In this document: in pieces, positions 34,128 to 57,551 of the stretch
Layout of the letters: the number at the start of each line of letters is the position of its first letter
Position numbering within the stretch: the stretch's first letter is position 1
Source of the DNA: Candidatus Aminicenantes bacterium UBA1061
GTDB lineage: Bacteria; Acidobacteriota; Aminicenantia; Aminicenantales; Saccharicenantaceae
Direction of reading: 5' to 3'
Length of the DNA stretch: 64,000 nucleotides
Assembly (NCBI GenBank): GCA_002316315.1
Contig: DCDG01000018.1
Location: 56,074 to 120,073, forward strand
Made by a program: the position numbers and the translations under genes
Notes under the pieces: model-generated
What the model was told of the DNA's origin: nothing
The model's database searches: none
What the model saw: the letters and a program-made list of their open reading frames with translations, nothing else

Positions 34128-36641
34128 CTATAGCCCGGTAGCCTGACCTTTCCTGGCTCCATTTACGCTATTAGGCGCCCCAAAGTCGGTCACACCCGGA
34201 ATATTGTCGAGGCACACCAGGTCACCCGTAATTACATTACCAACCAGAGCAACGCCATATTGATGCAACTTGCCGCTCAAAAATTTCACCACCTGACATC
34301 TGTTGCCAGAGACAGTCAGTGTCCGCTTGAATTTTGAGCCGGCGATGATTACGTCGTCATTAGTTCCGGAGATCGTAGCCTTCCCATCGACAGTAGCGCC
34401 AAAGAGGTGAATAACTGCGGCTCTGTCAGCCTGCAAATCACCCTTGATGGTTGAACCATCAGACACAACCAGAGAGGCGCCCGGTTTAACCACCACGTCC
34501 CCATTGATAGTTGCCCCATCAATGAGAGTTACACCTTTTTCAACTACCAGCTTTCCTTTATGCTGGCCAGTCACAATGTTTGTGGGTTCAGGCGATTTTC
34601 CAGGCAAAACTGTGGCTTTGAACATGTCAGGTAGACCGATATTGCCTGCCGGGTCAATAGCCCGATGTTCGACGGTATGAGTACCAAAGCCGGGCCAGAA
34701 GGTACCAAAAATCTCATGGTCAAGATAGAGCTGCTCCCAGGGAACCTTGGCGTGTCCGCCAGTACCAAGATTGCCATAGGTCAATCCCCTGACGTCCAGG
34801 CCGGAGTGGGTAAACTTAAACGGTGTGCCCATGGGTTTATCAGGAAAGCCAAAATAATTATACCAGCCACCTCTATTCAGCTGGAATTCTGCGGCGACAT
34901 AAAGAGGCTGGTCATAACCGCTCTGATCATCTTGAGGCTCAAGAAGCATTTCAAATTCATTGAAGTAAACATTATGTTCCACCTGGTCGGCAATGGTGGT
35001 CAGGGGTTTGGAAAGCTTTCGTGGAGCTGTCGGAAGAACGTTGTCAACTGACCAGGTAAGGCTGTCTGTCTGGCCGTTGGGCTCAGCAGGATCAGCCAGA
35101 GTGGCAGTCAGTTGGAAAGTGCCTTCGGGCAGATGGAGCTGGCTGAGGTTAAGGCAGCGACTGTTATTGGTATTTGGGATGACCTGGCCATCAAGACTCC
35201 AGGTTACCGTCAGCACCCGGTCTGAGGGATGAGTCGTCTCCACGAAGACGACCTCCTGGCCGCTTACCGGTCTGATGATCGGTGTTGATCTGGTAAACTT
35301 GGCTGATACTTCCTTCGCAGGCAGAGATTTACCCACTGTAAACCGGCGGGTCTGAGTCAACCTGGGTCCATTGATCCATTTCGGATCACGGACAAAATCA
35401 GTCGGATCTGAAACGGTAACTTCAATGATGTCGCCATTTTTAAGACTGAGTTTAGAAAGCTCCAGATTAGAGCTGTTGTGATTTTCTATTACCTGTCCAT
35501 TTACCCGCCAGGTAATATTCAGTTCATGATACCTGGGGTGCATGGTCTCGACCCAGATAATGTCTTTCGGGCCAACCTCACCTTCTGGAGTATGGTCGAG
35601 CGGCATACGGTTAGCATCGCGCCTACCAGTTATCCTGATGGTCATCTGCTCACGTTGAACAACATCAAAGTGGTAGCCCGTCCAGCGCATCATGCTGTAT
35701 TCACTGGCTCGCCGTATACCGCAGGGCCAGGTGTTACCACCCTCATAAAGGCCAATGGAACTGCCGGACGAAGCGCTATCCTCACCAATCCAGCGCCACC
35801 ATTTATGCTGGTCAGCAATCATCTTTTCTGTGCTGGTGTATATAGTGTGGGTGAAGGAGTCAGGTTCACCGCCAGTCCAGCATCCCCTCCAGACGTTTCT
35901 TTCGATATAAGGATAGTCATCAGCGATAAGACCAAGCGAGTGGCCCAGCTCATGGATAGAAACTAGCGGGCCTTGCGGTGAGCCGCCGGTAGTAGTCGCA
36001 TGAAAACCGCCAATACCACCATAGGTGAAGGTGTTGGCAATAGCCAGAGTCTGAATATTCTGGGATTCAACCGGTATGCCCAGTTCTGGCTCAACATAAT
36101 TTTTGAGGTACCAGGTACGCTGTTGGGCACCAGTCCGAGTTCCGGGAGGAGAGTTAAGGGGAGCAGGGCCATAGGTTACACCTCGGGCCAGAGGATTGGT
36201 AAGTCCATCCTGGTACCAGAGTCGAAGGGCGGTATTTTTGGCATCCCTGACTTCTGGTGGGGCATCTTCTCCCGGATCACGACGAATGCCTGAATCCTTA
36301 GAGACGATCTCCAGAAGATAGACGTTGATGTAATAACGATAAGTGCGGAAAGGCTCCATAGTCCACATGACTGCCAGATTCCTGTCCACATCCCGCAGAA
36401 ATTTATCTACTTCGTTAGCCTGATATCCATCGGCCATGAGGATAAAGTTGAGCCGTTCGCTGGCCGGCCCGGTGACCTGGTAGGCTATGAGCCGGGCACT
36501 TTCTACTTCTGGCCATTTAGGAAGTTCCTGAGCTGGAGCAGATAATGGCCATAAAATTAAAAGGCCCAAAAACACCGTACAAATTAGAGCTACCTTTTTA
36601 AATTCAGACAAAAGTCTTACACCTGCTGAATAAGTTCTCAA
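34128..36641 (-). CDS. Secreted M64-like (IgA-peptidase family) zinc metalloprotease with Ig-like/PKD repeats and a C-terminal beta-helix
   Basis: 837 aa with a signal peptide. HELGHSLGLIADDY matches the M64 pattern HExxH...L.DEY. Ig-like segments are repeated, and the C-terminus is a Gly/Asp/Val-rich beta-helical repeat. Confidence 0.55.
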   Translation of the reverse strand: MRTYSAGVRLLSEFKKVALICTVFLGLLILWPLSAPAQELPKWPEVESARLIAYQVTGPASERLNFILMADGYQANEVDKFLRDVDRNLAVMWTMEPFRTYRYYINVYLLEIVSKDSGIRRDPGEDAPPEVRDAKNTALRLWYQDGLTNPLARGVTYGPAPLNSPPGTRTGAQQRTWYLKNYVEPELGIPVESQNIQTLAIANTFTYGGIGGFHATTTGGSPQGPLVSIHELGHSLGLIADDYPYIERNVWRGCWTGGEPDSFTHTIYTSTEKMIADQHKWWRWIGEDSASSGSSIGLYEGGNTWPCGIRRASEYSMMRWTGYHFDVVQREQMTIRITGRRDANRMPLDHTPEGEVGPKDIIWVETMHPRYHELNITWRVNGQVIENHNSSNLELSKLSLKNGDIIEVTVSDPTDFVRDPKWINGPRLTQTRRFTVGKSLPAKEVSAKFTRSTPIIRPVSGQEVVFVETTHPSDRVLTVTWSLDGQVIPNTNNSRCLNLSQLHLPEGTFQLTATLADPAEPNGQTDSLTWSVDNVLPTAPRKLSKPLTTIADQVEHNVYFNEFEMLLEPQDDQSGYDQPLYVAAEFQLNRGGWYNYFGFPDKPMGTPFKFTHSGLDVRGLTYGNLGTGGHAKVPWEQLYLDHEIFGTFWPGFGTHTVEHRAIDPAGNIGLPDMFKATVLPGKSPEPTNIVTGQHKGKLVVEKGVTLIDGATINGDVVVKPGASLVVSDGSTIKGDLQADRAAVIHLFGATVDGKATISGTNDDVIIAGSKFKRTLTVSGNRCQVVKFLSGKLHQYGVALVGNVITGDLVCLDNIPGVTDFGAPNSVNGARKGQATGL

Positions 36642-36791: not shown

Positions 36792-37045
36792 TTTAAAAAA
36801 TCCAGAAAAGGCGCAGTTTATAAGACGGGGACAGCCATCAGACTGAAGCCGCACTTCAGCCCGAAGAAAGCACACCGGCGGCGAACCAAAAGCAAGAGCC
36901 TTCCTCTGGCCAACACCTTTGAGCTACCTGATCTCGCCTTCAAAAAGATAAAAATAAGTCAGCCCTTTGGCTGTCCTGATTTCCCGGGCATCTACTACCC
37001 GCACAGCCAGCTCGACCACTTGTCCGGCAATTCCCTGAGGTGAGC
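36792..37045 (-). repeat. Copy B of the dnaE2 3' terminus (about 250 bp; reading frame kept except for one stop)
   Basis: About 88-90% nucleotide identity to 52653-52920. Minus-strand translation gives ...GQVVELAVRVVDAREIRTAKGLTYFY..., matching the DnaE2 C-terminus. Confidence 0.8.
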
Positions 37046-37124
37046 GATTGGGAGAAGCGGCCTTCAGCTTAGAGCTAATGGTAAGCTATCTCCTGGGCCG
37101 TTCAGCATCTTTTTAGCCTCTAAC

Positions 37125-38339
37125 TTATTGATTATGAATGATATCCGCTGGCCCGACCCCATTTATCGAATAAACATTCAACTTGTCAGCTGTATTGGAA
37201 AGACAGATCCGGCTAAGCTGCTTCATGACCTCAAGATCATAATTTTCAATATAAGCTATATATAGCCTGCCATCCATTATCTGAGCCAGATTGTATCTGA
37301 TAAAATTGAAATAACAGGCCTGGCCGAGCTGGCTAAAATTCAGATCGTAGACATCTACAATGTATCTCTTTTTATCATCACGCTGGCCAGTCCAGACATA
37401 TATTTTCCCATCATCAATGTTCAGGCCAAAAATTGCCGGAAAATAGCGTGAGGGCCCTTTTAGTTCCTGTAAGATACGTTCAGAATTTGGGAAACGGATG
37501 ATCTTCATGTCATTGTCAAAGACATTAAAATCCTGCTCCGTAATGAGTTCCTTCTTTATTTTCTTCCCTTTAAAGGTTTTAACCAGCTTTCCATCTTTAG
37601 AATACTTATAAACCAGATAGTCAAAACTATCAGTTATATAAATATTCCCGGCTTCATCCAGAGCAAAATCTGGGATAAAGGTGGCAATGGAGCTCCCATG
37701 GCCTTCTTTTTGTTCGTAAATTAATTGGCTATGATTTCTCTGGCTATCGTATTTATAGATTAATATCTTCTTCTCCTCATTCCCGCCTAAAAGATAAAGA
37801 TTCCCTTCGCGGTCAAAACTAATTTTGTCAATGAATAAACCAGATAGGTTTGCTGGAAGACGTAGTTCATTTTTAAAATGGCCATCCGCTGTAAATATTT
37901 CCAGAGGCCGCCCAAAACTTGAGCTTACCCAGATATCGCCCTGGGGATCAACTGCCAGACAGCCGATGGCTTGAAATTCACCCGGGCCCTGACCCTTTCT
38001 ACCAAAGGAGAATAAGAAATTCCCATTTTTATCATAGGCATCTATTTGCTCACCTCTCACTTTATCCCAGGCGAAAATAAGACCGTTTTCAACGGCGAAA
38101 TAACCAATCCAGGTATAATAATGACCGGATCCCTCATCGCCGATGGTAAAAAGGGGCTGGCTCGAGGCAGCTAATGACCTTATCTCTGCTTTCTGACTGG
38201 AACAACCAGCAGCCAAAAGTAAAGCCATAAAGAAAATGATTATCTCAGGTATAATGGCTAAACTTTTTTCCCGACACCAGGCGCACAAATCAAGCAGTCT
38301 ATGACCAGGTCTGAAAGTATCGGAAATTAGTTCAATCAT
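37125..38339 (-). CDS. NHL-repeat / 6-bladed beta-propeller lipoprotein, paralog 1 (start probably the internal Met at about 38228, giving MALLLAAGCSS)
   Basis: Carries the GRKGQGPGEF signature followed by ...D..G.IWV..., which is NHL-like. Has a lipobox. It is one of 7 paralogs in this window. Confidence 0.7.
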   Translation of the reverse strand: MIELISDTFRPGHRLLDLCAWCREKSLAIIPEIIIFFMALLLAAGCSSQKAEIRSLAASSQPLFTIGDEGSGHYYTWIGYFAVENGLIFAWDKVRGEQIDAYDKNGNFLFSFGRKGQGPGEFQAIGCLAVDPQGDIWVSSSFGRPLEIFTADGHFKNELRLPANLSGLFIDKISFDREGNLYLLGGNEEKKILIYKYDSQRNHSQLIYEQKEGHGSSIATFIPDFALDEAGNIYITDSFDYLVYKYSKDGKLVKTFKGKKIKKELITEQDFNVFDNDMKIIRFPNSERILQELKGPSRYFPAIFGLNIDDGKIYVWTGQRDDKKRYIVDVYDLNFSQLGQACYFNFIRYNLAQIMDGRLYIAYIENYDLEVMKQLSRICLSNTADKLNVYSINGVGPADIIHNQ

Positions 38340-38517: not shown

Positions 38518-39645
38518 TTAATCAGGGATCTTCCAGCGGGCAGCCAGGCATTTAGCGCTCTGCGGGGCATTTTTCGGGTCATCAACCTGGTAATAAAGGG
38601 TGACAATCTGCCCCCTATCCACTTCAACCGAGCTTGGATACCCGCAGTCAGTATTTGGTGCTGAGGCGGAAATTATAATCTTTTTATCCCACTCCCAGGT
38701 TTTCCCGCCGTCCCGGCTGAAGATAGCCCGAACTCCCATCGGCGCATTACGCTCCCCATAGCTCAAGAGAGTCTGTCCATTTTTGAGCTGTATAAGATCT
38801 GCCGGATGCTCCATGTCCTGGGTTATCTGGAAGGGCGGCGACCAGTGCTTACCCCCATCTTCAGAACGGCTCACAGCTAAATGCCCGCCTTTCTCCGAGC
38901 GCATAGCCGCCAGTAAACTGCCATCGGGGAGGGCCAGCACAGCTGTTTCATTAAAATGCTCACCAACAAGAGAAGGCTCTCCCCAGGTTTTCCCGCCGTC
39001 TTTTGAACGAAAGACGTAGCTTTGATTTCCGCGGTCGTCAAAAAAATCAAAATAGACTGCCATGATAACTGTGCCATCCTCGAGCTGGATAATCTTTCCA
39101 TAAGGCGAGACGGCCCCGCGGCCAGCATAAAATGAATGAATCTCCAGGCTCAGTTCAGGTTTCGTCCAGGTTTTTCCCTTGTCTTTTGAACGGATGACAT
39201 AAACGCCATCGAAAACCCATTTCGAGACGTCTTCAGGAAGTCTTTGCCCGTCAGCCTCATATCCGCTGAGGACAGCATAGGCCAGAAGAATTGTGCCATC
39301 AGCCAGTTGACCAAGTGCCGGGTTACGGTCGTCTTCTGGACCGTCAACAACCGTCCAGGGTTTGGACCAGGTTCGGCCGCCATCATCAGATATGACCAGA
39401 TCAAGGCGCCCGGCCCGGCTAAGGTGAGCGCCGCCACCCCTGATAACAGCCAGAATTTCGCCAGTTGATAGCTTGACCGCCACTGGAAAATAGCCTCCTC
39501 CTTCGACTGCCGTCACCTGATCCATTGAAGTGAAGGCCGCCATGCTGATACAACACATCAGTCCGGTGAGACTCAGAACCGCCAGCCACCGCCGGCCCCA
39601 CCTGTTATTCTTCTTGCTCTTCATTTCCTTTATTTCTTTTATCAT
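38518..39645 (-). CDS. BNR/Asp-box repeat protein (sialidase-superfamily beta-propeller), secreted
   Basis: Five S-x-D-x-G-x-T-W Asp-box motifs (SDDGGRTW, SKDKGKTW, SKDGGKTW, SEDGGKHW, SRDGGKTW). The N-terminus has RR followed by a hydrophobic stretch, which may be a Tat signal. Confidence 0.7.
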   Translation of the reverse strand: MIKEIKEMKSKKNNRWGRRWLAVLSLTGLMCCISMAAFTSMDQVTAVEGGGYFPVAVKLSTGEILAVIRGGGAHLSRAGRLDLVISDDGGRTWSKPWTVVDGPEDDRNPALGQLADGTILLAYAVLSGYEADGQRLPEDVSKWVFDGVYVIRSKDKGKTWTKPELSLEIHSFYAGRGAVSPYGKIIQLEDGTVIMAVYFDFFDDRGNQSYVFRSKDGGKTWGEPSLVGEHFNETAVLALPDGSLLAAMRSEKGGHLAVSRSEDGGKHWSPPFQITQDMEHPADLIQLKNGQTLLSYGERNAPMGVRAIFSRDGGKTWEWDKKIIISASAPNTDCGYPSSVEVDRGQIVTLYYQVDDPKNAPQSAKCLAARWKIPD

Positions 39646-39901: not shown

Positions 39902-40200
39902 TTCAAAAATGAACTTATTAGGGTGATAAAAAAGTGTGAAGGAAGGCGCAGTTTATAAGGCGGGGGCAGCTGTCAGACTGAAGCCGCACTTCAGCCCGAA
40001 GAAAGCACACCGGAGGTGAGCTAAAAGCCAGGGCCTTCTTCTGACCTACGCCCTCAACCTGCCCGCTCTCATCTTCGAAAAGACAAAAATAAGTCAAGCC
40101 GCGCGATGTTCTGATTTCCCGGGTATCCATTACCGGGATAGCTAGCTCGGTCATCTGACGGCACAATTCCTTGAGATGTTCGATCCGCAGCGGCGGACAC
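39902..40200 (-). repeat. Copy C of the dnaE2 3' terminus (about 300 bp; ORF 39918-40217 intact)
   Basis: Encodes ...REIRTSRGLTYFCLFEDESGQVEGVGQKKALAFSSPPVCFLRAEVRLQSDSCPRLINCAFL, which is 85-90% identical to the DnaE2 C-terminus. Confidence 0.8.
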
Positions 40201-40353
40201 CAGCGAGCCCTAAGCAAACTGCTAGCTATCCTACGCCGACTTATTTTTCTTTAAGCCATTATCTTATTGATTATTAACAAATTGTGTTAGCCCAACCCGC
40301 ATTTAAATATATAAGCTCCTCCCCTACAGCACAGGGGCCGGCACCAGCAATTG

Positions 40354-41526
40354 TTATTTCTTCCAGGTAGCCTGATAACAGCAAATATACTGATAACCTT
40401 CTTCGTCCTTCTCAATAGTGTATATTTTGCCGTTTTTTGCAAGAAAGGCTTGGCCTGTCATCTCACAGCGCGCGATAAGCTTCCCTTCAGCACTGAAGAT
40501 ATCCACCAAATAAGAATCCTTAGCCTTACCTTTCTCATAAGTCCTGACATAGAGCCGGTTCTCCTCATCAACAAAGAAACCAGAGAAAGCAGGATAGTTA
40601 GCCGGAAAAACTACCATCTCTTTCAAATTCATTCCCGGTGTCTCCGGTATCTGCTTGAGCATTTCTTCTTTATCTTTCTGACTTATAGACTGCGGTCGAT
40701 ATTCTTTTCGCACTATTTTGACCAGCTGGCCTTCCGGATTGAAATATTTAATTTCATAAGAGGAACTACGGCCATAAATAATATTTCCACTTCCATCCAG
40801 GCAATAATCATAAGTGATCGTAAAGGGATTAATCTTGCCGCCACCCAGGGGCGAAGCCATTAGCAGCGTATCAATTTTAAAAAGCTGGTTAAAATCAGCA
40901 TCATATTTAGCAATAGTATAGGCTATCGAATTCCCTTCCATCCCCATTTCGCAACCTACATATTGACCGCCGCTGTCAATTACTTCCAACATAGCCAGTT
41001 TCTTAGCGTAAGAAACTTCTCTCGTCATCTTACCTTCAAGGTCGGAATAAATCAGTTTTCGGTTACCACTATCATTTATCATCAGTTCGCGGTCAGATAA
41101 GAGCTGGAGTCCAGACGGAGCGTTCCACTCGCCCGGGCCCTGGCCTTCTTGGCCAAATTCTTTTAGCTTTTTGCCATTTGGATCGAAGACATTGACCTTT
41201 TTTGCCTTAAAATCCAGAACAAAAATCCGGCCGTCAGCCGCAACATCGGCTCCAGCTACAACCCCGAAGGCGCTTCCTCCTTGTTCCAGCTTTCCGATGG
41301 TAATTTCTTTGGTTAAAATCAATCTCTGAGAGCCAGAAGGTTTAGCTTTATTCTCGATTATCTGGACATCAGCTTTATCAGCCAGCCTGATAACGGCCTT
41401 ATCTGCTACGGAAAAAGCCGATACAGAAAAAACTGAAATCATGGCTACAAGGAAAACTGGCACATACATAAACGATCTGTGTGTAAATTCTTTTTTTCTC
41501 ATCTTCCTCCCCTTGCTTATCAACAT
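40354..41526 (-). CDS. NHL-repeat / 6-bladed beta-propeller secreted protein, paralog 2
   Basis: Signature GQEGQGPGEW, signal peptide, 390 aa. Confidence 0.7.
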   Translation of the reverse strand: MLISKGRKMRKKEFTHRSFMYVPVFLVAMISVFSVSAFSVADKAVIRLADKADVQIIENKAKPSGSQRLILTKEITIGKLEQGGSAFGVVAGADVAADGRIFVLDFKAKKVNVFDPNGKKLKEFGQEGQGPGEWNAPSGLQLLSDRELMINDSGNRKLIYSDLEGKMTREVSYAKKLAMLEVIDSGGQYVGCEMGMEGNSIAYTIAKYDADFNQLFKIDTLLMASPLGGGKINPFTITYDYCLDGSGNIIYGRSSSYEIKYFNPEGQLVKIVRKEYRPQSISQKDKEEMLKQIPETPGMNLKEMVVFPANYPAFSGFFVDEENRLYVRTYEKGKAKDSYLVDIFSAEGKLIARCEMTGQAFLAKNGKIYTIEKDEEGYQYICCYQATWKK

Positions 41527-41541
41527 TTTAAAATGGCTGCC

Positions 41542-42531
41542 TTATTTAGAGCGACCTGCGATAAAAGGCATCATAAATAAGCCCGGGTCCATTCCTTCTT
41601 CTTCCTTTTTCTTCTTTATAGCTCTTATGTCACTTTTAGTGAGTGCTCCTCCGCTGGATTCAGTATCTTCAACTGGATTAAGTTCTGTAACCTTTTTGTT
41701 TTCTATCTTGCCCATAACATAAAGACAATAGGGGTTGTTTGGTGCTTTTTCCAAAGCTAACTTAGCATAGTTCTCAGCCTCATCAATTTTCCCGGCTTTA
41801 AGAAGGGTAAAAGCTAAGGAATAAAGATATCTGGTGTTTTCTGATTTTGAAAGAGCTTCTTTCCAATAATACTCTGACTCCTGATATTTTCCCCTCCTGA
41901 AGAAGGCAGTCGCCAGGTCGCGGAAATACACTTCATTATCCTTATACTTGCTTTCCAGACCAGAGTCATCTTTTAAGGCAATCATTGACCAATTCTCTTC
42001 CTCCCCTGAGGTCCATAACTCTAAAAAATCTTTCTCTTTGACAAAAATATTTTTCCCTAAAAGAGGATCAGCTAAGACAATCGAGTCCTTTTGGTATCCA
42101 ACCACCAGTCGGTAATGTCCTTTATCGATTTCTTTTGAAGCTTTCTGAAAAACCACCACCGGAACTCCCTTTGAGATTAGCTCCTTTAAATCATTCAAAT
42201 TACCCTTAAAAGAATATGACTTCAGCCCTTTTGATTGAGGATAAAAAACCATCTCAGAGAGCTTCATCACTTTTTCCTTTTCGTCAAAAACTCTGGCAGC
42301 AACCATTTCCTGTTTTTCATCTAAGCCATAAAAATGAAGCATCATCTGCAAAACCGCTGGCCCGCACCACCCGTTTTTCTCCTGCTTATAAAATTTCATG
42401 TTTTTTATAACATTGGCTTTTTTAGGAATGGATTCAGCCTGATAGAAATAGGTATGAGAGGCACATGAAGAAAAAACGCTTATCACAAAGATTAGTAGCA
42501 AATTTTTTAGCCTTTTGTTTTTACCTTTCAT
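41542..42531 (-). CDS. Lipoprotein with a C39-like papain-fold peptidase domain (Peptidase_C39_2 type) and C-terminal TPR repeats
   Basis: Lipobox VFSSC. Candidate catalytic Cys in NGWCGPA and candidate His in KGHYRLVVGY. TPR-like repeats follow (YWKEALSKSEN..., AENYAKLALEKAPNNPY). It lies directly upstream of NHL paralog 2 on the same strand, separated by 15 bp. Confidence 0.55.
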   Translation of the reverse strand: MKGKNKRLKNLLLIFVISVFSSCASHTYFYQAESIPKKANVIKNMKFYKQEKNGWCGPAVLQMMLHFYGLDEKQEMVAARVFDEKEKVMKLSEMVFYPQSKGLKSYSFKGNLNDLKELISKGVPVVVFQKASKEIDKGHYRLVVGYQKDSIVLADPLLGKNIFVKEKDFLELWTSGEEENWSMIALKDDSGLESKYKDNEVYFRDLATAFFRRGKYQESEYYWKEALSKSENTRYLYSLAFTLLKAGKIDEAENYAKLALEKAPNNPYCLYVMGKIENKKVTELNPVEDTESSGGALTKSDIRAIKKKKEEEGMDPGLFMMPFIAGRSK

Positions 42532-42905
42532 TTATGTCCCTCAAAAATTTATTTTCCTCTCTATTTATCCAGAGGCAATTCTCCATCCCGATTGATAAGG
42601 CTTTTTTTAATTGCTCTTCGGGAGCACTCAGAGATACCCTGGTTCCAGTTTCAGAAGGGCTATACCAGATTCTCGCCCTTAGTTGCTGGAATGCTCGTTC
42701 GAATGCCAATTTTTCCCCTCGCCGTCTTTAAATATCAGTCAAAAAAAGATGCATGTCAAATACAGACCTTATTCAGGCTAGCACATAATATCCAGGGCAG
42801 ACCGAGAAGTAGAGAGGGTTGTCCACAAGGTGTTTGGCGGCTTGCAACCCTGGACGGCGGAGCAGAGGCGCAGAGATCAAAAGTTCTATAGTTTAAAAGC
42901 AAGAC

Positions 42906-43064: not shown

Positions 43065-43318
43065 TTAAAAGCTATGGAGAAAGGCACAGTTTATAAGGCG
43101 GGGGTAGCCGTCAGACTGAAGCCGCACTTCCCCTCTAAGAAAGCACACCGGAGGCGAGCCAAAAGCCAGAGCCTTCCTCTGCCCCACGCCCTCAACCTGC
43201 CCGCTTTCATCTTCAAAAAGATAAAAATAAGTCAGGCCGCGCGACGTTCTGATTTCCCGGGCATCTACTACCCGGACAGCCAGCTCAACCACCTGTCCGG
43301 CAATTCCCTGAGGTGAGC
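43065..43318 (-). repeat. Copy D of the dnaE2 3' terminus (ORF 43065-43292 intact)
   Basis: Encodes MVELAVRVVDAREIRTSRGLTYFYLFEDESGQVEGVGQRKALAFGSPPVCFLRGEVRLQSDGYPRLINCAFL. About 90% nucleotide identity to the dnaE2 3' end. Confidence 0.8.
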
Positions 43319-43438
43319 GATTGGGAGAAGCGGCCTTCAGCTTAGAGCTAATGGTAAGCTATCTCCTGGGCCGTTCAGCATCTTTTTAGCCTCTAACTTA
43401 TTGATTATGAATGATATCCGCTGGCCCGACCCCATTTA

Positions 43439-43716
43439 GATGGCAGGTTGAAAGATAACCCGGCAGCCAGATCTTTTGACCTTCACCTTGATTTCATGAT
43501 ACTTGCCGTCCCAGCTTTCCGGAACAGGATAACCAAGAACGTAATAGGCACCGGTCAGAGTCTCAATTTTCTCAATATGGTCGGGAGCAGCATAGATTGT
43601 CCCGGTGTACTGACCTCCAGTCTTCCAGGCTATCTCTCGAAGAGAAACGGTTCCCCTTGGATGAATAGATTCCTGAATTATTAGATATGTATTATCTTCC
43701 GTATCAACCGGAAAGC
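43439..43716 (-). pseudogene. Fragment (about 280 bp) of a VWA-like gene paralog, homologous to 47237-47516
   Basis: About 88% nucleotide identity to the C-terminal coding part of the 46807-48468 gene. No start codon, and it is fused directly to other repeat fragments. Confidence 0.65.
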
Positions 43717-44039: not shown

Positions 44040-45023
44040 ATGATGAAAGCTACTAGCCTTACCCACAAGGACAAATTGTGTTTTCTTCAGGGTTCTGTTA
44101 AGAAGCGCAAAACATGTGCGATTGGACTGATAGCCGTGCTGTATATTCTTACTCTTATGTCATGTGTATCACCAAAACCGTCCGACAAGACAAATATTCT
44201 GCCTGAATTTGTGGCAGCCGCTTATGGAGATAAAAATCTAGTTTCTAAGGAGTTGCGCGGCTGCACGTTCGTAATTTTTATCAATTCTACAGAGACCTAT
44301 CACATCGATCTCCTCGAGAAAGTATACAGAGATTATTCAGACGACGTCAATATTATCGCTTTTGTTGGCCAAATTTCCCTTCTCCCACTCTTGCACGACA
44401 GATTCCCGAGAGCCTGGATCATAGATGATAGCCAACAACTTTTCGTTGAAAAGTTTGATGCTAGATCTTGTTGCGGCCGATTTTTCATCTATGATTCGAG
44501 CAAACAATTAATCGCAGCTGGGAACAATACAGTATTCTATGAAGAAGGAACTAGATCAATTTTACAAAGAACCGTGGACCATATCAGTTTCGATATTTCA
44601 GTTCTGATACCCGAACAGAGCGTATCAGATAGTCCCGTGTTTCGAGAATTATGGGATCGATTACGTGTCCAAGAAAAGAGTACATATGTAATATTTATGC
44701 TGTCTGATATTTGTGGCTCCTGCCCCGTTGCCAAGACAATTTCGGAATTGTCAGCAGCATTAATCAGGCAACTAGATACCATTGGAGTAGCATTTCTCTT
44801 CTCGTCAGATTTTTCAGATATCGATATCCGGAACTTCAAAGTAAAATGGTCAGTTCCCTGGCCGTGTATACGTGCCGATGGCGATCTGGCTCTTAAATGG
44901 AATGATTTAATTCATGATTTTAGTCGAGAAGAACTGAATCAGATCCTTCTGCTTGTGGATTCGAGAGGAAAGTTGCTGGCCATAAACCAGGCCGCTTTTA
45001 AGAAACTGGTAGAGGTGAAATAA
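44040..45023 (+). CDS. Tandem thioredoxin-fold (TlpA/redoxin-like) lipoprotein
   Basis: Lipobox LTLMSC. The second domain carries CxxC (DICGSCP). The first domain is redoxin-like with a single Cys (RGCTF). It is separated by 1 bp from the downstream NHL paralog 3. Confidence 0.55.
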   Translation: MMKATSLTHKDKLCFLQGSVKKRKTCAIGLIAVLYILTLMSCVSPKPSDKTNILPEFVAAAYGDKNLVSKELRGCTFVIFINSTETYHIDLLEKVYRDYSDDVNIIAFVGQISLLPLLHDRFPRAWIIDDSQQLFVEKFDARSCCGRFFIYDSSKQLIAAGNNTVFYEEGTRSILQRTVDHISFDISVLIPEQSVSDSPVFRELWDRLRVQEKSTYVIFMLSDICGSCPVAKTISELSAALIRQLDTIGVAFLFSSDFSDIDIRNFKVKWSVPWPCIRADGDLALKWNDLIHDFSREELNQILLLVDSRGKLLAINQAAFKKLVEVK

Positions 45024-45024
45024 G

Positions 45025-46110
45025 ATGCCAGACCTAAAAACCAGAGTAGCATGGGCAATACTTGTGTTGATGATGCTTGCTTCTGGGCAGGCTCCGGCCT
45101 TGTTGTCCCAGAGCAAATACAGAACCGATTCAGATATTAAGAAGACGCTTCTTGAGAAATATCGAATCCAACCAGAGTGGCAAGAGATGGAAATTGTTCG
45201 CATCTTTCCCGGCGAGGAGGACCTAAAATCATCTCACTATTTAAACTATCCATCAGATCTAGTTCGAATCGGGGATAACTTGTTCGTTGGGGACTATGGC
45301 CTGGGGCAAGTCTTAATCTTCGACAAGGATGGGACATATCGTGGTACCTTCGGACGTCGCGGACAAGGTCCTGGTGAGTTTTCCCGTCTGGGAGAGATAG
45401 CCGGCAACGAAGCCAGCGGAATCTATGTCACCGACTCCGGAAGAATCCAGCATTTTTCCTTGGATGGTAGTTTTTTGGAGTCATTTAAATTTTTTGATAT
45501 TGTTAATGATATGGTCATTAATGGCCCTCATTTGTTGATTAATGCGATCTATGGACAGTCCAAAAATAAACAGAATCCTCTGATCATCCGCTGTGATCTC
45601 GCCGGAAATATCATATCGACCTTCGGCAACCGAATTGATCAAGACAACCATTATTCTACTGATAGCCGTGCTTATTTGGCTGCACGGGGCAGCGAAACTG
45701 TAGCCGTCTTCAGGCATTACCCCCAAATTCAAATCTATGATCATCTGGGAGTTCTGAAGAAACAATCGCAAATCAGTATTCCAATTCTTACCCATCTTGA
45801 AAAATTCAACTATGATAGCTCATTCACCAACCCGATGCCTGGCGTTATTAATTTGACCAGGCTGGTTGCCGGCGTTCAGATAGCAAGGGATAAAATCTTT
45901 ATTCTTTTGCATCTGCCCAGGATTGAGATTCATGAAATTGATGAATCCGGAAAGGTTCAAAAAGTGTATTATAGTCAGCGTTTAAACAATATCGTTGATT
46001 ATAGGGGATTTGCCTTAAGGCCTGACGGACCGGATTATTTCGCCTATATCGTCACCGTTTCTGAGGAAGAGATTTCATTATATACTTTTAAAATCAAACA
46101 AACCAGATGA
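45025..46110 (+). CDS. NHL-repeat / 6-bladed beta-propeller secreted protein, paralog 3
   Basis: Signature GRRGQGPGEF, signal peptide, 361 aa. Confidence 0.7.
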   Translation: MPDLKTRVAWAILVLMMLASGQAPALLSQSKYRTDSDIKKTLLEKYRIQPEWQEMEIVRIFPGEEDLKSSHYLNYPSDLVRIGDNLFVGDYGLGQVLIFDKDGTYRGTFGRRGQGPGEFSRLGEIAGNEASGIYVTDSGRIQHFSLDGSFLESFKFFDIVNDMVINGPHLLINAIYGQSKNKQNPLIIRCDLAGNIISTFGNRIDQDNHYSTDSRAYLAARGSETVAVFRHYPQIQIYDHLGVLKKQSQISIPILTHLEKFNYDSSFTNPMPGVINLTRLVAGVQIARDKIFILLHLPRIEIHEIDESGKVQKVYYSQRLNNIVDYRGFALRPDGPDYFAYIVTVSEEEISLYTFKIKQTR

Positions 46111-46237: not shown

Positions 46238-46450
46238 ATGAAAAGAGTCATCTGGGTGATCGGAGTAATAGGCTTTTTATCTGTGAGTCTGATCATCCCA
46301 ACGCATGCCGTGGTGAATACTCCGCTGAAATGCTCATCTTTGGTAGAATGCGGCGATTGGTTAGAGTGCCCGGAGCGAGGACGCGAAATTCAGCGCTGCG
46401 TACTCGATTGCGAAAATGGCCCAATCGTTTTTTGCCCTGGTCCAATGTGA
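46238..46450 (+). CDS. Small secreted cysteine-rich peptide (70 aa, 8 Cys in the mature part)
   Basis: Signal peptide, then a Cys-rich region of about 45 aa (KCSSLVECGDWLECPERGREIQRCVLDCENGPIVFCPGPM). Lies immediately downstream of NHL paralog 3. Confidence 0.4.
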   Translation: MKRVIWVIGVIGFLSVSLIIPTHAVVNTPLKCSSLVECGDWLECPERGREIQRCVLDCENGPIVFCPGPM

Positions 46451-46806: not shown

Positions 46807-48468
46807 TCAATTTTTATCAGGCCCGGGGATGATGACAGAAGCTGCCGCCACAGCTGACTTGCCTGTCTCCATATTCCTTATGACCAGCCGGCACTTGTAA
46901 GTTCCTGGTTTAGCTGAAAGTTCACTCTGAATGGAGAGAGGTTTCTGGCGATACTCAGGTTTCGTTAGATCAAGCTCAATACGCCGGCTGTCAACTATCT
47001 GATCAAGCTGGTCAAAGAGAAGACTGACTGCTTCCACTCTCGGACCGACAACTTCCCCCAGCTCCTCCAACCGAAGCCTCGCTATGATCTGAATATTATT
47101 GGGTGGCGCAGGCGATTTAACCTGAGCCTCCATATCAAACCGTAACGGTTCGCCAGAGAGTGGCCTGGGTGAAAGAGCCACATCGACCAGGTGAATTTTT
47201 TTCTCCAGCTCTGAAAAGGAAGAAAATGGCTTCTGATTGAAATAGCCAGGTTGAAAGATAACCCGACAGCCAGGTCTTTTAACCTTCACCTTGATTTCAT
47301 GATACTTGCCGTCCCAGCTTTCCGGAACAGGATAACCAAGAACGTAATAGGCAGCGGTTAGAGTCTCAATTTTCTCAATGTGGTCGGGAGCAGCATAGAT
47401 TGTCCCGGTGTACTGACCTCCAGTCTTCGAAGCCATCTCTCTCAAGGAAGGTATTCCCTTTGCGGTCTCAGGGTACTCCAAATAGAAATTATCTTCAGTA
47501 TCAACGGGAAAGACTGAGGCATTAGCATCAGCTAACTGACGGCAGAGCTGTTCATATTCCCGGCCGAGATGAGCATTGCCATTATCAACATAGGCACCGC
47601 GACCTATATAGGCCGGGTGGATGCCGTTAGAATAAAGAAGAATGATTTTCTTCCCCTGAATATAACGCAGGGCCTGGGCGAGAGACTGCATTGACCAGAT
47701 AAAGTTAGAAGATACGATCTTGCCCGCCATTACATCATTGGACATCCGCCCAGGGCCCGAGCGTGAATATGAATCATAAGCAGCTCCGGAAGTTGCGATC
47801 TGGAATTGCGAATCAAAGAAGCGGCTCGGAGCCAGTGGCATAATATCTTTAGCCTGAATAGACTCAATCGCCCGTCGTGCTCCTTCCCGGTCACGGTCAG
47901 GCTGATGCAGAACATTGAGAACGCGGCCACCAGAAAAAGTTAAAACCCCAACCAGCATGTCCGGCTCAAGCTCTTTCTCAAGAGAGCGAAGCGCTGCCTC
48001 CCGGGCTAATTTAAATCCTCCCTGATCAGTAAACACTAAATCAAATAAATAGAGGAAGATGCGGTTTAGAAGAGGTTGCGGGGCCGGTACCTTCTCTTCT
48101 GGCTTATTTTCGACGACAGGCTCGGGTCCTTTCTTTTCAGCCGGGAGAGACATGGTGTGATTCTCAAACTCGGTCAGCAGCTTCTCCTTACCATTATCAT
48201 AAAGAATAAAGTCTTCTTTGCTCAGGTCAGTCACCGGCTGGCCTTTATCATCAGTCACCATGACATAGATGAGCTTTCTGATGACACTGACCTGGTATTG
48301 CTGGTTATCCCTGACCTTTTCCTGCCCTTGCCCCATGTTTGGCAGCAAGGAAACGAAAACGCCAACAACCAGGAAGGCCACAAGAATAATTACGATCAGC
48401 GAGCTTGAACGCCTATTCCCGGCCGAAGCTTTCCCTCTTGATAAAGCCCTGAAGACCTCAAGCTTCAT
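46807..48468 (-). CDS. Membrane-anchored VWA-like protein (resembles the VWFA-related Acidobacterial-type domain family)
   Basis: N-terminal transmembrane segment. A beta-sandwich N-domain (VMVTDDKGQPVTDLSKEDFILYDNGKEK) is followed by a VWA-like region (LVGVLTFSGG...). 553 aa. Confidence 0.45.
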   Translation of the reverse strand: MKLEVFRALSRGKASAGNRRSSSLIVIILVAFLVVGVFVSLLPNMGQGQEKVRDNQQYQVSVIRKLIYVMVTDDKGQPVTDLSKEDFILYDNGKEKLLTEFENHTMSLPAEKKGPEPVVENKPEEKVPAPQPLLNRIFLYLFDLVFTDQGGFKLAREAALRSLEKELEPDMLVGVLTFSGGRVLNVLHQPDRDREGARRAIESIQAKDIMPLAPSRFFDSQFQIATSGAAYDSYSRSGPGRMSNDVMAGKIVSSNFIWSMQSLAQALRYIQGKKIILLYSNGIHPAYIGRGAYVDNGNAHLGREYEQLCRQLADANASVFPVDTEDNFYLEYPETAKGIPSLREMASKTGGQYTGTIYAAPDHIEKIETLTAAYYVLGYPVPESWDGKYHEIKVKVKRPGCRVIFQPGYFNQKPFSSFSELEKKIHLVDVALSPRPLSGEPLRFDMEAQVKSPAPPNNIQIIARLRLEELGEVVGPRVEAVSLLFDQLDQIVDSRRIELDLTKPEYRQKPLSIQSELSAKPGTYKCRLVIRNMETGKSAVAAASVIIPGPDKN

Positions 48469-48666
48469 TTTTACCCCTCCAGGAATCTATAAATTTATCT
48501 TAAGCTTTCCGCCCTGAAATTAGCAACTTTTGTGCCAGAGCCATTTCCCCAACCTTTCCTGATATATACCGCTTTATACTGTCTGTCCTGTTCGACTTCA
48601 TGAACACCTGTCCACTAAAAATGACATCATGCTTCAGGGCGCAGGCCGTGCCCTACCTAAATTTCG

Positions 48667-49911: not shown

Positions 49912-50030
49912 ACCATCTTCTCTTCTGAACTCCATTGTCTAAGCTTCATCCTGACACCTCCTTACTCAGTATAATCTCTATCTCTTTGAGGTGTCCACCT
50001 CCTCAGGGGGTCAGTATAACCTCTTATACT
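49912..50030 (-). mobile_element. Solo left-end remnant of the IS3-family element (inverted repeat, 5' UTR and first ~12 codons of orfA)
   Basis: About 90% identical to 59950-60070. The reverse complement begins ATGAAGCTTAGACAATGGAGTTCAGAAG, encoding MKLRQWSSE as in orfA at 59993. Confidence 0.7.
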
Positions 50031-52652: not shown

Positions 52653-55508
52653 TCAAAAAGTTGATAAGAAGGCACAGTTTATAAGGCGGGGGTAGCTGTC
52701 AGACTGAAGCCGCACTTCAGCCCGAAGAAAGCACACCGGAGGTGAGCCAAAAGCCAGAGCCTTCCTCTGGCCCACACCCTCAACCTGCCCGCTCTCGTCT
52801 TCAAAGAGATAAAAATAAGTCAAGCCCTTGGCTGTTCTGATTTCCCGGGCATCTACTACCCGCACAGCCAGTTCGACCACCTGACCGGATAATTCCCTGA
52901 GGTGAGCAACTCGCAGCGGCGGCCGCCGGCCATTCAGTAGCTCCAGCGGGTCGCCAGCCGGCAGGAAGCCCAGTTTTTCCAGCTGAAGTTTTTTCTTCTC
53001 CTCATCATTGATGTCTGCTACCTCGACTTCGGAGACACCATGAAAATAGTGCAGAACCTGCTGGCTGCGGTTTGGTTCAAGCGAATCAAGAGCTCCAGCC
53101 TGGATTAGAGCCAGCAGGTCGCTCTGGCCTGGTTTTACCCGTCCGAGGAAGTCTTCCACCGACAAATAGACGCCATCTCTCTCCCGCTCGTTGATGATTT
53201 TTTCTAGGCTCCTGGCGGTTAGATTTTTAATGGAACCAAGGCCAACTCTAATCGCCTTCCCTTCGACCTCAAAGCGATAACCGCTGCGGTTGACATCCGG
53301 GCCAAGGATCGTTAAGCCCAGCCTCTTAGCTTCCTCAATGTATTCCGGAAGCTGGTAGTAACCACCGGCCGCATTAAGCACAGCCACCATATAGACCAGA
53401 GGATAATGAGCTTTAAGATAAACGGCTTCATAAGCCATGAGGGCATAAGAGGCGCTATGAGCCCGGTTAAAAGAATAGGCCGAAAATTTTTCCATCTTCT
53501 GCCACAGCTCCTGAATCTCAGCCTGAGCATAGCCGCGGCTTTCGGCCCGGTCAAAGAATTTCCGGCGCAAAGCCTCATCCACCCGGCGCTTTTTTAGCTG
53601 ACGGCGCAAAAGTTCTCCTTCTTCCGGCGGGAAACCAGCCACCCTTTCTGCCACCTGCATCACCTGCTCTTCATAAAACATCAGGCCGCCGGTTTCGGGG
53701 AGAATCTTAGCCAGCAGCGGGTCTGAAGGAGAAGCCCTCCCCTCGCGTCGCCTCAGAAAGGCTTCTTTCATCCCGCTTTCAGTCGGACCAGGTCTGATTA
53801 AAGCCAGAGCATGGATTAAATCGTCCAGGTTTTCCGGCTTCATCCGGCGGAGGAGATTCATCATGGCCGGGCTTTCCACCTGAAAGCAGCCAATTGTTTT
53901 CGCTTCGCGGAGAAGAGTAAAAGTCTGGCGGTCAGCAGGCGGAAGATACTCAAGATGAAGAGTTTTTCTGGTCTCGGCTATAGCTGTCAGCCCGCGGGTA
54001 GAAAGGAGGTCAAGCTTAATAAGCTGGAGTTCTTCCACCGTGTCCCGGTCATAATGGCACATGAGGAGTCCTTTGGCTGATTTTTCAAGCGGCAGGTAGC
54101 GGTCAACTGGCGCCGGGGTCAAAATTACACCCCCAACATGGAGGGAAATCTCGGCGAAAACACCGTCCAGCTCAGAAGCCAGTTTCCAGATGTCCAGGCA
54201 GCCGGCCTGAGGCGGCATCTGCCGCAAATAATCAGGCTCGGCGAACATCGGCACCCGCTTGCTCATCGTCCTGGCTTCTTCCGGCGAGATGCCAAAAGCC
54301 CGGGCAGTTTCATAAAGGGCCGAGCGCGCCCGGTAATTCTTCAGGCTGCAGACATAAGCTGCACCGGTTTCTCCTGTCCCGTAACGTTTGAGTACATACT
54401 CCAGGACTTCATCCCGGCGGCTCGAGTCAAAGTCAAGGTCAAAGTCAGGTGGATCAGGCCGGCCGCGGTTTAAAAAGCGTTCAAAATAAAGGCCATACTC
54501 CACCGGATTAAGACGGGAAATGCCCAGAAGATAGGCCAGATAGGAAGAAGCTCCCGAGCCACGGAGATTGTGGTAGATGCCCTGGCGGCGGGCAAATTCC
54601 ACCACGTCACAAACAACAAGAAAATAAGGGGCAAAACCGCTCTCTTCAACCACCTGAAGCTCACGCACCGCCCGGGCCCTTTCTTCCCAGCTGAGATTTT
54701 TCAGCCTGGATAACCGGTCATTAATCACCTGACGCAGGGAAACAGGGAAAAGATCAGGCGGAAGAGGCGGAACAATATTTTTAAAAGAGAAATCTATTTT
54801 TTCGATAAGCTCCTGGTGGCGGCGAAAAATTGGTTTGACCCGGTCGCCATATTTTTTTAAAGCAATTTTTTCCTGCTCCGGGCCAAAATTTCTGAGGACC
54901 GGCGAAAGCCTTTTAAGTTCGGGCGGATAAGGAATTTTTTTCTCTATCGTCCGAAGGAGGACCAGGCGCGGCGCACTGGTCAGAAATTTCAGCGGCTCAG
55001 TCCAGAGAAGAGGAAACCCTGTTTTCGCTGAGAGCCACTCGCCGCCAGGCAGGTTGTTAAGACCGCAGCCAAGATAAAGATCATCCGGTGCCCGCTCCCC
55101 AATCTGGCGAATAAAACTCACCCACTCTTCGAGTTCCACTTCGGACACAGGCAGCTTTTCCGGCAGGATAAAAATGGTAGCGAGTCCATCCGGTTCCAGA
55201 AACTCCCGGCGATTAAAAATCTCAAGCAACCGGTGATAGCCCTTTTTCTCTTTGATGAGAAAAACATAGCGGCTGCCCCTTATGGGAAAATCCAGTTCAA
55301 GCTCGCAGCCAAAGACTGGCTTAAAGCCGCGCCCCTCGCTCAGGGCCTGCCACTTACCCCAGCCATAAAAAGCAGCCACATCGGTCAGGGCAGCTGCCGG
55401 GAGGCGATTTCTCTCTGCAAATTGCACGAGTTCTTCCAGGGTCAGGCTGCCTTCTCCCCGGCTAAAGGTTGAATGAACTCTTAAAGGGATAAACATTTTT
55501 GGACTCAC
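52653..55508 (-). CDS. dnaE2: Error-prone DNA polymerase III alpha-like (DnaE2/ImuC-type)
   Basis: 951 aa with a PHP N-terminal domain, a Pol III alpha core and a C-terminal OB region. It is the last gene of a lexA-dinB-dnaE operon and overlaps dinB by 4 bp. Confidence 0.65.
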   Translation of the reverse strand: MSPKMFIPLRVHSTFSRGEGSLTLEELVQFAERNRLPAAALTDVAAFYGWGKWQALSEGRGFKPVFGCELELDFPIRGSRYVFLIKEKKGYHRLLEIFNRREFLEPDGLATIFILPEKLPVSEVELEEWVSFIRQIGERAPDDLYLGCGLNNLPGGEWLSAKTGFPLLWTEPLKFLTSAPRLVLLRTIEKKIPYPPELKRLSPVLRNFGPEQEKIALKKYGDRVKPIFRRHQELIEKIDFSFKNIVPPLPPDLFPVSLRQVINDRLSRLKNLSWEERARAVRELQVVEESGFAPYFLVVCDVVEFARRQGIYHNLRGSGASSYLAYLLGISRLNPVEYGLYFERFLNRGRPDPPDFDLDFDSSRRDEVLEYVLKRYGTGETGAAYVCSLKNYRARSALYETARAFGISPEEARTMSKRVPMFAEPDYLRQMPPQAGCLDIWKLASELDGVFAEISLHVGGVILTPAPVDRYLPLEKSAKGLLMCHYDRDTVEELQLIKLDLLSTRGLTAIAETRKTLHLEYLPPADRQTFTLLREAKTIGCFQVESPAMMNLLRRMKPENLDDLIHALALIRPGPTESGMKEAFLRRREGRASPSDPLLAKILPETGGLMFYEEQVMQVAERVAGFPPEEGELLRRQLKKRRVDEALRRKFFDRAESRGYAQAEIQELWQKMEKFSAYSFNRAHSASYALMAYEAVYLKAHYPLVYMVAVLNAAGGYYQLPEYIEEAKRLGLTILGPDVNRSGYRFEVEGKAIRVGLGSIKNLTARSLEKIINERERDGVYLSVEDFLGRVKPGQSDLLALIQAGALDSLEPNRSQQVLHYFHGVSEVEVADINDEEKKKLQLEKLGFLPAGDPLELLNGRRPPLRVAHLRELSGQVVELAVRVVDAREIRTAKGLTYFYLFEDESGQVEGVGQRKALAFGSPPVCFLRAEVRLQSDSYPRLINCAFLSTF

Positions 55509-56764: not shown

Positions 56765-56784
56765 TTTCCCCTGATTTTAAAGAC

Positions 56785-57507: not shown

Positions 57508-57551
57508 CATGGATATGATTTACTGATCTGAATGAGAAAAACCATTGACAA
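57508..57551 (+). promoter_or_regulatory. Conserved promoter-like motif (TGGATA..CTGAATGAGAAAAA..TTGACA) in the divergent lexA/NHL6 intergenic region
   Basis: About 45 bp that are also present at 50576-50617, upstream of the peptide/NHL5 locus. The motif contains a -35-like TTGACA. Confidence 0.4.

Follow-up and report, generated by a model that had tools for sequence, protein, structure and literature searches.

Almost all that is understood of C39 peptidases concerns the cytoplasmic domains of exporters for bacteriocins and quorum peptides, and for the free-standing exported members (FapD, PA2778 family) we know of no substrates. A gene on the minus strand of a 64-kb stretch of contig DCDG01000018.1 from Candidatus Aminicenantes bacterium UBA1061 (the window), which probably encodes another exported C39 peptidase, raises the question of what such an enzyme would act on. 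The gene is located at 41542..42531 (stop codon included) and encodes a protein of 329 amino acids composed of a signal peptide with a lipobox-like end, a C39 peptidase domain, tetratricopeptide repeats (TPR) and a C-terminal Gly-Gly tail. An earlier reading of the window from its letters (the sequence-only reading) had described a C39-like papain-fold lipoprotein with TPR at the head of a two-gene operon with an NHL gene. In this study, the tail was found to be a fused copy of a small partner protein that is encoded separately in relatives. With moderate confidence, the protein is interpreted as an exported Gly-Gly peptidase which now carries the cognate motif of its partner peptides in cis.

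The C39 peptidase, its active site and its export signal

The open reading frame (ORF) was characterized by Pfam and NCBIfam matches, by seven close homologues and by the ratio of nonsynonymous to synonymous substitution rates (dN/dS). It starts with an ATG, and a Shine-Dalgarno-like GAGGG was found 7 nt 5′ of this codon. For the whole gene, dN/dS was 0.19–0.29 in comparison with two homologues of 84–86% identity (L008 and L013). Because of these values the ORF cannot be attributed to chance; the gene is real and under purifying selection. The tail gave values of 0.13–0.37, which are based on small counts. Close homologues of the protein form only seven clusters (90% identity) among 5.8 billion proteins, and an exhaustive profile search resulted in 20 representatives below 1e-30 and 517 below 1e-10. 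The fusion of peptidase and tail is kept in four clusters at 90% identity.

The C39 papain-fold domain comprises residues ~44–190 (41962..42402, minus strand) and was delimited using Pfam, the alignment to ComA, Foldseek and residue conservation. Peptidase_C39_2 (PF13529) matched residues 44–156 with an E-value of 2.2e-13 (51.4 bits, cut-off 24) and Peptidase_C39 (PF03412) with 4.9e-12 (46.3 bits, cut-off 22). The domain is followed by about 2.5 TPR repeats at residues ~198–277 (41701..41940, minus strand), which were recognized by the Pfam models TPR_2, TPR_1 and TPR_14, by matches to consensus TPR structures in the PDB and by five predicted helices at residues 200–277. The TPR_2 match (6e-9, residues 234–266) exceeds the curated cut-off, as do both peptidase models, so that the search with hidden Markov models (HMM) proposed in the sequence-only reading agrees with the family assignment made there. 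The two motifs named in that reading, NGWCGPA and GHYRLVVGY, are present at residues 53–59 and 138–146, respectively.

In a profile alignment to ComA (PDB 3k8u), Gln50, Cys56, His139 and Asp155 fall on Gln11, Cys17, His96 and Asp112, which we take to be the catalytic set of ComA. The codons of Cys56, His139 and Asp155 are located at 42364–42366, 42115–42117 and 42067–42069 (minus strand). Both proteins have the motif CGPAVL in common, and the spacings are equal, with 6 residues from Gln to Cys and 16 residues from His to Asp. The profile-to-PDB search matched ComA over the full domain with 1.6e-4, compared to 9e-3 for the pseudomurein endoisopeptidase PeiR. Down to 29% identity, all of the 12 homologues compared retain Cys56, His139 and Asp155, and all of the seven closest ones retain Gln50.

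The AlphaFold2 (AF2) model has a mean predicted local distance difference test score (pLDDT) of 73, with 67–94 in the peptidase and TPR parts, 67–93 in the peptidase domain alone and less than 50 in the tail. The helix 56–67 begins with Cys56 and the strand 139–147 begins with His139. The best PDB matches of the model in Foldseek were PCAT1, ComA, LahT, a C39-like peptidase of Bacillus anthracis and PeiR; for ComA 3k8u, the target-normalised template modelling (TM) score was 0.84 with a root-mean-square deviation of 2.8 Å. The modelled arrangement of Cys and His is papain-like, where a missing papain-like dyad would have contradicted the earlier reading. Model score, positions of the catalytic residues and papain-like fold all bear out the assignment of the protein to the C39 peptidase family. 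Judged from its sequence, the domain is probably a catalytically competent cysteine peptidase of the Gly-Gly type, and its activity is predicted on this basis.

The signal peptide with its lipobox-like end was read from the sequence MKGKNKRLKNLLLIFVISVFSSC and comprises residues 1–23, ending with Cys23 (42463..42531, minus strand). Using the lipobox criterion [LVI][ASTVI][GAS]C, the end of the signal peptide of the window protein is lipobox-like (VFSSC, with Phe at −3), and the close homologues have the canonical FLSAC. In the more distant homologues P0005–P0007 the lipobox Cys is missing. The lipoprotein claim of the earlier reading is compatible with the N-terminus, with FSSC here and LSAC in close homologues, and the protein is probably exported via Sec and lipid-anchored.

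The Gly-Gly tail, the lost maturase and the propeller partner

The tail comprises residues ~275–329 (41545..41709, minus strand; KIENKKVTELNPVEDTESSGGALTKSDIRAIKKKKEEEGMDPGLFMMPFIAGRSK) and was assigned by BLASTP, HMM and motif search. It consists of a Gly-Gly motif, a charged stretch and a short hydrophobic end (LFMMPFIAG). The motif ELNPVEDTESSGG, followed by ALTK, contains Gly294-Gly295 at 41647–41652 (minus strand), within the Gly-Gly stretch ELNPVEDTESSGGALTKS. BLASTP of the tail yielded E-values of 2e-7 for an 81-aa protein of locus L005 and 2e-5 for a small protein of L006. When these two free-standing proteins were combined with the fused P0006 tail into an HMM, its sole match in the six-frame translated window was the tail (E 1.3e-6), and the motif search revealed no second copy of the tail motif elsewhere in the window.

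In relatives with 50–58% identity the peptidase ends after further TPR helices, and a separate small gene is located between the peptidase and propeller genes. The clearest free-standing case is L005 of Candidatus Aminicenans sakinawicola, in which the small gene encodes the 81-aa lipoprotein ..VEELNPIEESEPGGGAITKKEEKTIMGADEFIWIFLIGALQNRNNK. The window tail is homologous to the C-terminal half of this protein; with the fusion, the window lineage dropped the last TPR helices and the signal peptide of the partner. P0006 is a similar fusion of peptidase and tail, and since its junction differs from that in the window, it suggests a second, independent event.

Small genes were also found beside distant C39-TPR genes with 27–36% identity (L007, L009, L010 and L011), where 1–6 of them are located directly downstream in 4 out of 4 loci. 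The encoded proteins have a signal peptide, a nearly invariant [ND]VIT[AE]SDAGGG and a C-terminal membrane helix. The corresponding Gly-Gly stretches of the partner proteins in L005 and L010 are NVITESDAGGGDLS and ELNPIEESEPGGGAITK. In all fetched DNA, the motif search gave matches only beside C39-TPR genes, plus one ORF beside the radical SAM gene of L002. A profile of the small proteins retrieved at least 500 clusters (90% identity), mostly of 78 aa (..QDVITASDAGGGYLSTRDIILVVIIIFAVIGLIAVL). This 78-aa family (e.g., P0276–P0395) follows the pattern ..QDVITASDAGGGY[LM][ST]TRDI plus a membrane helix. All members are unnamed, neither Pfam nor NCBIfam has a model that matches them, and where a source is named, it is an Aminicenantes or Acidobacteria metagenome bin.

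The largest array of small genes was seen at L010:11131–13166, where six tandem genes with signal peptide, NVIT.SDxGGG and membrane helix follow one C39-TPR gene. One of the six is a fragment, and another was overlooked by the gene caller, which had called an ORF on the opposite strand instead. The motif is conserved among them and the hydrophobic C-terminal parts are variable.

Upstream, the start of the peptidase gene is abutted by what is left of an AlbA-like radical SAM/SPASM maturase gene, namely 23 aa encoded by its 3′-end (42542..42610, minus strand), detected by tblastn and BLASTP. In this remnant 17 of 23 residues are identical to residues 417–439 of the radical SAM protein of L002 (pairwise E 5e-10). 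It is part of an ORF of 62 codons that overlaps the peptidase start, and it retains LKKALSIGMENCLWINREENKFL. In L002/L003 and L004 an intact radical SAM/SPASM gene ends a few bases from the peptidase start codon; the L002 protein gave a full-length match to the subtilosin maturase AlbA (6e-43), and the product of the upstream gene in L004 is a SPASM protein. The contig of L006 ends at the point that matches the radical SAM position, and no radical SAM gene was found in the whole 64-kb window. In the PADLOC analysis, the L002 radical SAM protein showed only generic viperin-like similarity.

An uncalled ORF of 42 aa is located 50 nt upstream of the AlbA-like gene in L002 (L002:1270–1395). It encodes MINPIIMSAGGGCSACSACGICAFLGNILFLVAGVALVHIIK (beginning with MINPIIMSAGGGCSACSACGIC..), in which an NPI..S.GGG motif is followed by four Cys and a hydrophobic stretch, and it is regarded as a candidate Cys-rich precursor. 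Since an intact radical SAM gene is present in L002/L003 and L004 and the 23-aa remnant in the window, the ancestral gene order is reconstructed as radical SAM, C39-TPR, Gly-Gly peptide and propeller, a layout similar to clusters for ribosomally synthesized and post-translationally modified peptides (RiPPs). By the same sequence comparison, the window lineage, which also includes L001, L008 and L013, is one in which the radical SAM gene was deleted and the peptide fused to the peptidase.

The downstream partner is a 382-aa six-bladed NHL/DUF5128 propeller with signal peptide (40354..41502, minus strand), identified by Pfam DUF5128, the orthogroup matrix, AF2 and Foldseek. The longest ORF is 40354..41526; translation probably begins with the ATG at 41502, which has GGGGAGG in front of it and was also called as start on the near-identical contig L001. 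The distance from the peptidase stop is 39 nt to this ATG and 15 nt to the first ATG. Of the proposed translational adjacency, neighbourhood and common direction therefore remain, and an overlap of the two genes does not, given the gap of 39 or 15 nt. The operon-like pairing is in agreement with the data, as the next gene on the same strand is the DUF5128/NHL gene and no terminator-like site was found in the gap between the two genes.

The propellers beside C39-TPR genes in the window, L002, L005, L006 and L008 belong to one orthogroup (345–735 bits, 48–97% identity), to which the other six paralogs of the window score below 100 bits. The exception is L004, where the propeller beside the C39-TPR gene belongs to another group. 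Because the propellers of five independent loci form one orthogroup, distinct from the six other window paralogs, the co-occurrence analysis proposed in the sequence-only reading argues that the pairing is no accident of a paralog-rich island. With 406 matches, the orthogroup far outnumbers the peptidase, and its members often occur on their own. As an example, the 68%-identical propeller P0162 is found alone in six places (from 24 contigs), with no peptidase, small protein or radical SAM remnant nearby. The peptidase is therefore an accessory to the C39-linked propeller family and not a general part of the set of NHL paralogs in the window. Accordingly, its earlier description as the proteolytic component of a putative system applies to one propeller orthogroup and not to the window paralogs in general.

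The propeller was modelled with a pLDDT of 87.6. Its Foldseek matches are generic NHL domains (Brat, TRIM2/71), Bacteroides DUF4221 and BF0058, and these fold matches indicate no specific enzymatic activity. A function as peptidyl-alpha-hydroxyglycine amidating lyase (PAL) acting on Gly-extended peptides was considered and dropped, as no PAL was among the top 50 Foldseek matches. The seven DUF5128/NHL paralogs are encoded within 25 kb (37125–38339, 40354–41526, 45025–46110, 48667–49797, 50961–52055, 57608–58681 and 60414–61520). They are highly diverged, being mostly 20–45% identical in local alignments, and are interspersed with repeats, gene fragments and an insertion sequence (rve transposase, 58844–59692).

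Proposed mechanism and rival explanations

In the interpretation favoured here, the protein combines a Sec-exported and probably lipid-anchored C39 cysteine peptidase with a short platform of TPR repeats. The peptidase would have as its cognate substrate or ligand a small envelope peptide with the motif [ND]-[PV]-I-x-x-S-x-x-G-G-G, whose C-terminal segment is hydrophobic. The relatives encode this peptide separately, right after the peptidase, and in the window its C-terminal half is fused in frame. Since the Gly-Gly motif lies in cis, cleavage is predicted after Gly294-Gly295, either in cis or between molecules. The predicted product would be a peptide of 34 residues (A296–K329) with a charged helix and a hydrophobic end. 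Binding partners in the periplasm may be the TPR repeats and the co-transcribed NHL/DUF5128 propeller, and with the maturase deleted the module would work without radical SAM chemistry. Cleavage at the motif, the position of the cut and the roles of a released peptide and of the propeller are inferred.

The closest match of the window protein in NCBIfam is the PA2778 family (NF033920, 8.9e-20), which is also composed of signal peptide, C39 domain and C-terminal TPR. With 71.2 bits, compared to a cut-off of 150 bits, and a coverage of model positions 2–149 of 255, the protein is not a member. Among the relatives, P0009 scores 98.6 bits and P0028, with 177 bits, is a bona fide member. The gene of P0028 adjoins that of a PA2779/DUF6627 (NF033919) small protein with signal peptide, ..IKAGGD and a membrane helix, which resembles the arrangement described here. 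In contrast to this pair, the small proteins of the window type are encoded downstream and not upstream, and in the window the small protein is fused; the third catalytic residue stands in the context DP in the window protein and S/T-G in true members; the window adds an NHL propeller, and the relatives add a radical SAM gene. Membership of the small partners and the tail in the PA2779/DUF6627 family was rejected, as there was no sequence match to NF033919 or DUF6627 at E-values up to 1–10. The literature search found no experimental work on the PA2778/PA2779 pair or on the window-type family.

The peptidase domains of ABC exporters (ComA, PCAT1, LahT/AMS; MEROPS C39) are similar in fold, in the Gln/Cys/His/Asp set, in the spacings and in CGPAVL, and by analogy with them a specificity for Gly-Gly sites is likely for the window protein. 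Unlike in PCAT/AMS, the C39 domain is not fused to ABC domains and no transporter is adjacent, the nearest ABC genes (10922–12612) being of the unrelated ABC-2 type. In addition, the peptidase has an export signal peptide and is thus predicted to act outside the cytoplasm, the window motif lacks the hydrophobic residues at −4 and −7, and the peptides of the relatives carry Sec signal peptides. A precedent for periplasmic activity is FapD of the Pseudomonas Fap amyloid system. This C39 peptidase is free-standing and exported via Sec, its catalytic Cys is needed in the periplasm, and its substrate is assumed to have non-canonical GG/GA sites (PMC5557850). FapD has neither TPR nor a fused partner, no Fap genes are present here, and the comparison covered the C39 domain. 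Sactipeptide and ranthipeptide RiPP clusters resemble the relatives, which have the AlbA-like radical SAM/SPASM gene and, in L002, the 42-aa Cys-rich GGG ORF. They differ from the window, which has no radical SAM gene or Cys-rich precursor, an extracytoplasmic peptidase and an NHL propeller in the cassette. In terms of the criteria for sactipeptide-like clusters (radical SAM/SPASM and Cys-containing precursor), L002 qualifies and the window does not.

Several observations weigh against a self-processing fusion. The literature search yielded no cleavage data for the window-type family or the PA2778 family. The window tail gave no significant match to an HMM of the distant small proteins, and the Aminicenantes-type tail NP[IV]E.[ST]E.GG is linked to the distant DVITASDAGGG proteins by motif resemblance and position. 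Canonical double-glycine leaders are hydrophobic at −4 and −7, where Ser and Asp are found here. The AF2 model leaves the low-confidence tail undocked from the active site. The Cys-rich peptide of L002 has no signal peptide, whereas the peptidase is periplasmic. The co-occurrence of C39-TPR genes, small genes and neighbours was determined from about 10 loci. Furthermore, the segment following GGG is well conserved in the 78-aa family, which is at least as compatible with a membrane subunit or anchor as with the release of a variable core peptide.

This last point leads to the strongest rival, in which the small Gly-Gly protein or tail is a membrane anchor or regulatory pseudo-substrate and the true substrate is another envelope protein, e.g., the DUF5128 propeller or the NHL paralogs. 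We regard it as unlikely, but it accounts for more than the conserved and not hypervariable segment. The lipobox seems to shift between the partners, being present in the small protein of L002, L005 and L006, where the peptidase has a plain signal peptide, and in the peptidase of the fused window clade; the pairing with the propeller gene is conserved, and a promoter-like element of the C39 operon is common to two other NHL paralog genes. The lipobox argument is countered by P0006, which is fused yet has no lipobox. Against the propeller as substrate, no Gly-Gly site is conserved in its N-terminal region, where QGGS occurs in the window propeller and has no counterpart in the L005 orthologue. 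The six tandem small genes per one peptidase gene in L010 are typical of precursor families, and the near-invariant G-G-G beside an active site of the C39 family, which is specific for Gly-Gly, also speaks for a cleaved motif.

Two further explanations concern the peptidase itself. A peptidoglycan endopeptidase, in which a papain-fold hydrolase works with a TPR lipoprotein adaptor as in NlpI-MepS or in the C39_2 domains of phage endolysins, is improbable. It would agree with the periplasmic lipoprotein architecture with TPR repeats, with the counting of Peptidase_C39_2 among the catalytic domains of phage lysins in the literature and with the Foldseek match to PeiR (E 7e-6), which is close to that of ComA. 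The profile search, however, prefers ComA to PeiR, no cell-wall-binding domains are present in the protein and no cell-wall genes nearby, and the gene regularly occurs together with Gly-Gly peptides and, among relatives, with a radical SAM gene for a peptide maturase. Still less probable is a non-catalytic C39-like scaffold or a functionless remnant that decays after the loss of the radical SAM gene. Signs of decay are the reduction of the radical SAM gene to 23 aa, the mosaic of gene fragments upstream, the loss of the last TPR helices and of the partner signal peptide in the fusion, and the NCBIfam score of 71 bits below the PA2778 cut-off. Against this, Gln, Cys, His and Asp are all kept, whereas the Cys is absent from C39-like domains of the kind found in HlyB; the low dN/dS, including the tail, holds across three diverged copies, and the fused form occurs in four 90% clusters. 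A papain-like toxin of a type VI secretion or contact-dependent inhibition system, which was among the fold matches, was rejected because of the Sec/lipoprotein signal and a context with no PAAR, CdiA or immunity gene. A known anti-phage defence system was likewise rejected, as PADLOC gave no match for the peptidase or the propellers.

For the self-processing fusion, the locus and its relatives provide a concrete candidate substrate family, the ~78-aa membrane peptides with GGG motif. If this interpretation is correct, the window protein is a natural fusion of enzyme and substrate in one chain, and the large uncharacterised DUF5128/NHL expansions of Aminicenantes would be linked to a peptide-processing cassette that once held a radical SAM maturase. 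If there is no cleavage, it is an ordinary divergent C39-TPR lipoprotein. A wider reading, which we put forward tentatively and consider doubtful, is that exported C39-TPR peptidases and GGG membrane peptides form a widespread unnamed envelope system in which peptides are processed outside the cytoplasm. One Aminicenantes lineage would have added an AlbA-like radical SAM protein and an NHL propeller, resulting in a new RiPP-like cassette, and the window would be a self-processing fusion without maturase. The peptide family concerned was found mainly in Aminicenantes and Acidobacteriota.

Regulation and genome surroundings

A promoter-like element, TGGATA..CTGAATAAG-N8-TTGACA (TGGATA..CTGAATRAG-N8-TTGACA), was identified ~220 nt upstream of the peptidase ATG (42754..42794, minus strand). 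TTGACA-17-GATATT represents a sigma-70-like site. The element has 3 matches in the window, compared to 0 expected, and these are located upstream of the C39 operon and of the NHL genes 50961 and 57608. It is also found upstream of the C39 homologue in L008. Furthermore, ~350 nt upstream of the C39 operon are homologous to the upstream region of the NHL gene 50961. The distribution of the element suggests that the C39 operon and the two NHL paralog genes share regulation.

The third copy of the element (57510–57550) lies in the divergent intergenic region between lexA and the NHL gene. LexA, a Y-family polymerase (IMS) and a DnaE2-like polymerase are encoded as a mutagenesis cassette at 52653–57411 (minus strand), amid the NHL-rich region, and SOS/LexA control of NHL and C39 genes is conceivable from this arrangement. 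Sigma-54 control was rejected: a sigma-54 activator is encoded upstream in L002, but no sigma-54 promoter match was found upstream of the window gene. The sole perfect sigma-54 consensus of the window (TGGCACAAAAGTTGCT, 48522–48537, minus strand) is located 54 nt upstream of an acidobacterial-type VWA gene (46807..48468). An Rfam scan of the window identified two tRNA-Ser genes and no other noncoding RNA.

The general region is chromosomal, as housekeeping genes (glyQS, gcvPT, argS and serS) fill the rest of the window. It probably belongs to an Aminicenantes-like genome, given that Ca. Aminicenans sakinawicola is the nearest genome match and that the propeller homologues carry the names Aminicenantes or Saccharicenans. 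Around the C39 operon, the terminal ~260 nt of the dnaE2-like gene (52653..55508) recur in three extra copies with 65–88% identity. These are located at 36807–37170, 39942–40309 and 43080–43443 (minus-strand sense), corresponding to 52653–53031, and a further copy was found at L008:107–352. Each copy is preceded by ~120 nt of common non-dnaE2 sequence. The copies bracket units of ~3.1 kb (NHL and BNR; NHL and C39) downstream of the intact gene, as if cassettes or islands had been inserted in tandem at the 3′-end of dnaE2 and each had brought along a surrogate end of the gene. Between 36 and 52 kb, no integrase was seen.

Beside one dnaE2-fragment copy, a fragment of 216 nt (43444–43659) is 92% identical to 47247–47462, an internal part of the VWA gene. 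Since this fragment adjoins the dnaE2 copy upstream of the C39 operon, the region from 42.5 to 43.7 kb is a mosaic of gene fragments. In addition, a direct repeat of 113 nt with 92% identity was found at 49913–50025 and 59957–60069, upstream of the NHL gene 48667–49797 (minus strand) and downstream of the NHL gene 60414–61520 (minus strand), respectively. By its position, this repeat is further evidence for shared non-coding modules among the NHL paralogs.

The island is flanked by genes for a bacterial serpin (62264–63556, minus strand; 7.7e-124), an M64-like peptidase (34128–36641, minus strand) and a BNR/sialidase-like propeller (38518–39645, minus strand). A second small operon-like set was identified on the plus strand at 44040–45023, 45025–46110 and 46238–46450. 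The first gene encodes a 327-aa lipoprotein that has no family match and contains a CGSC motif (thioredoxin-like CxxC). The second, an NHL paralog, starts right next to the stop codon of the first, and the third encodes a 70-aa protein with a signal peptide and seven Cys in a mature part of ~45 residues. From its gene content, this set may represent another combination of secreted peptide and propeller.

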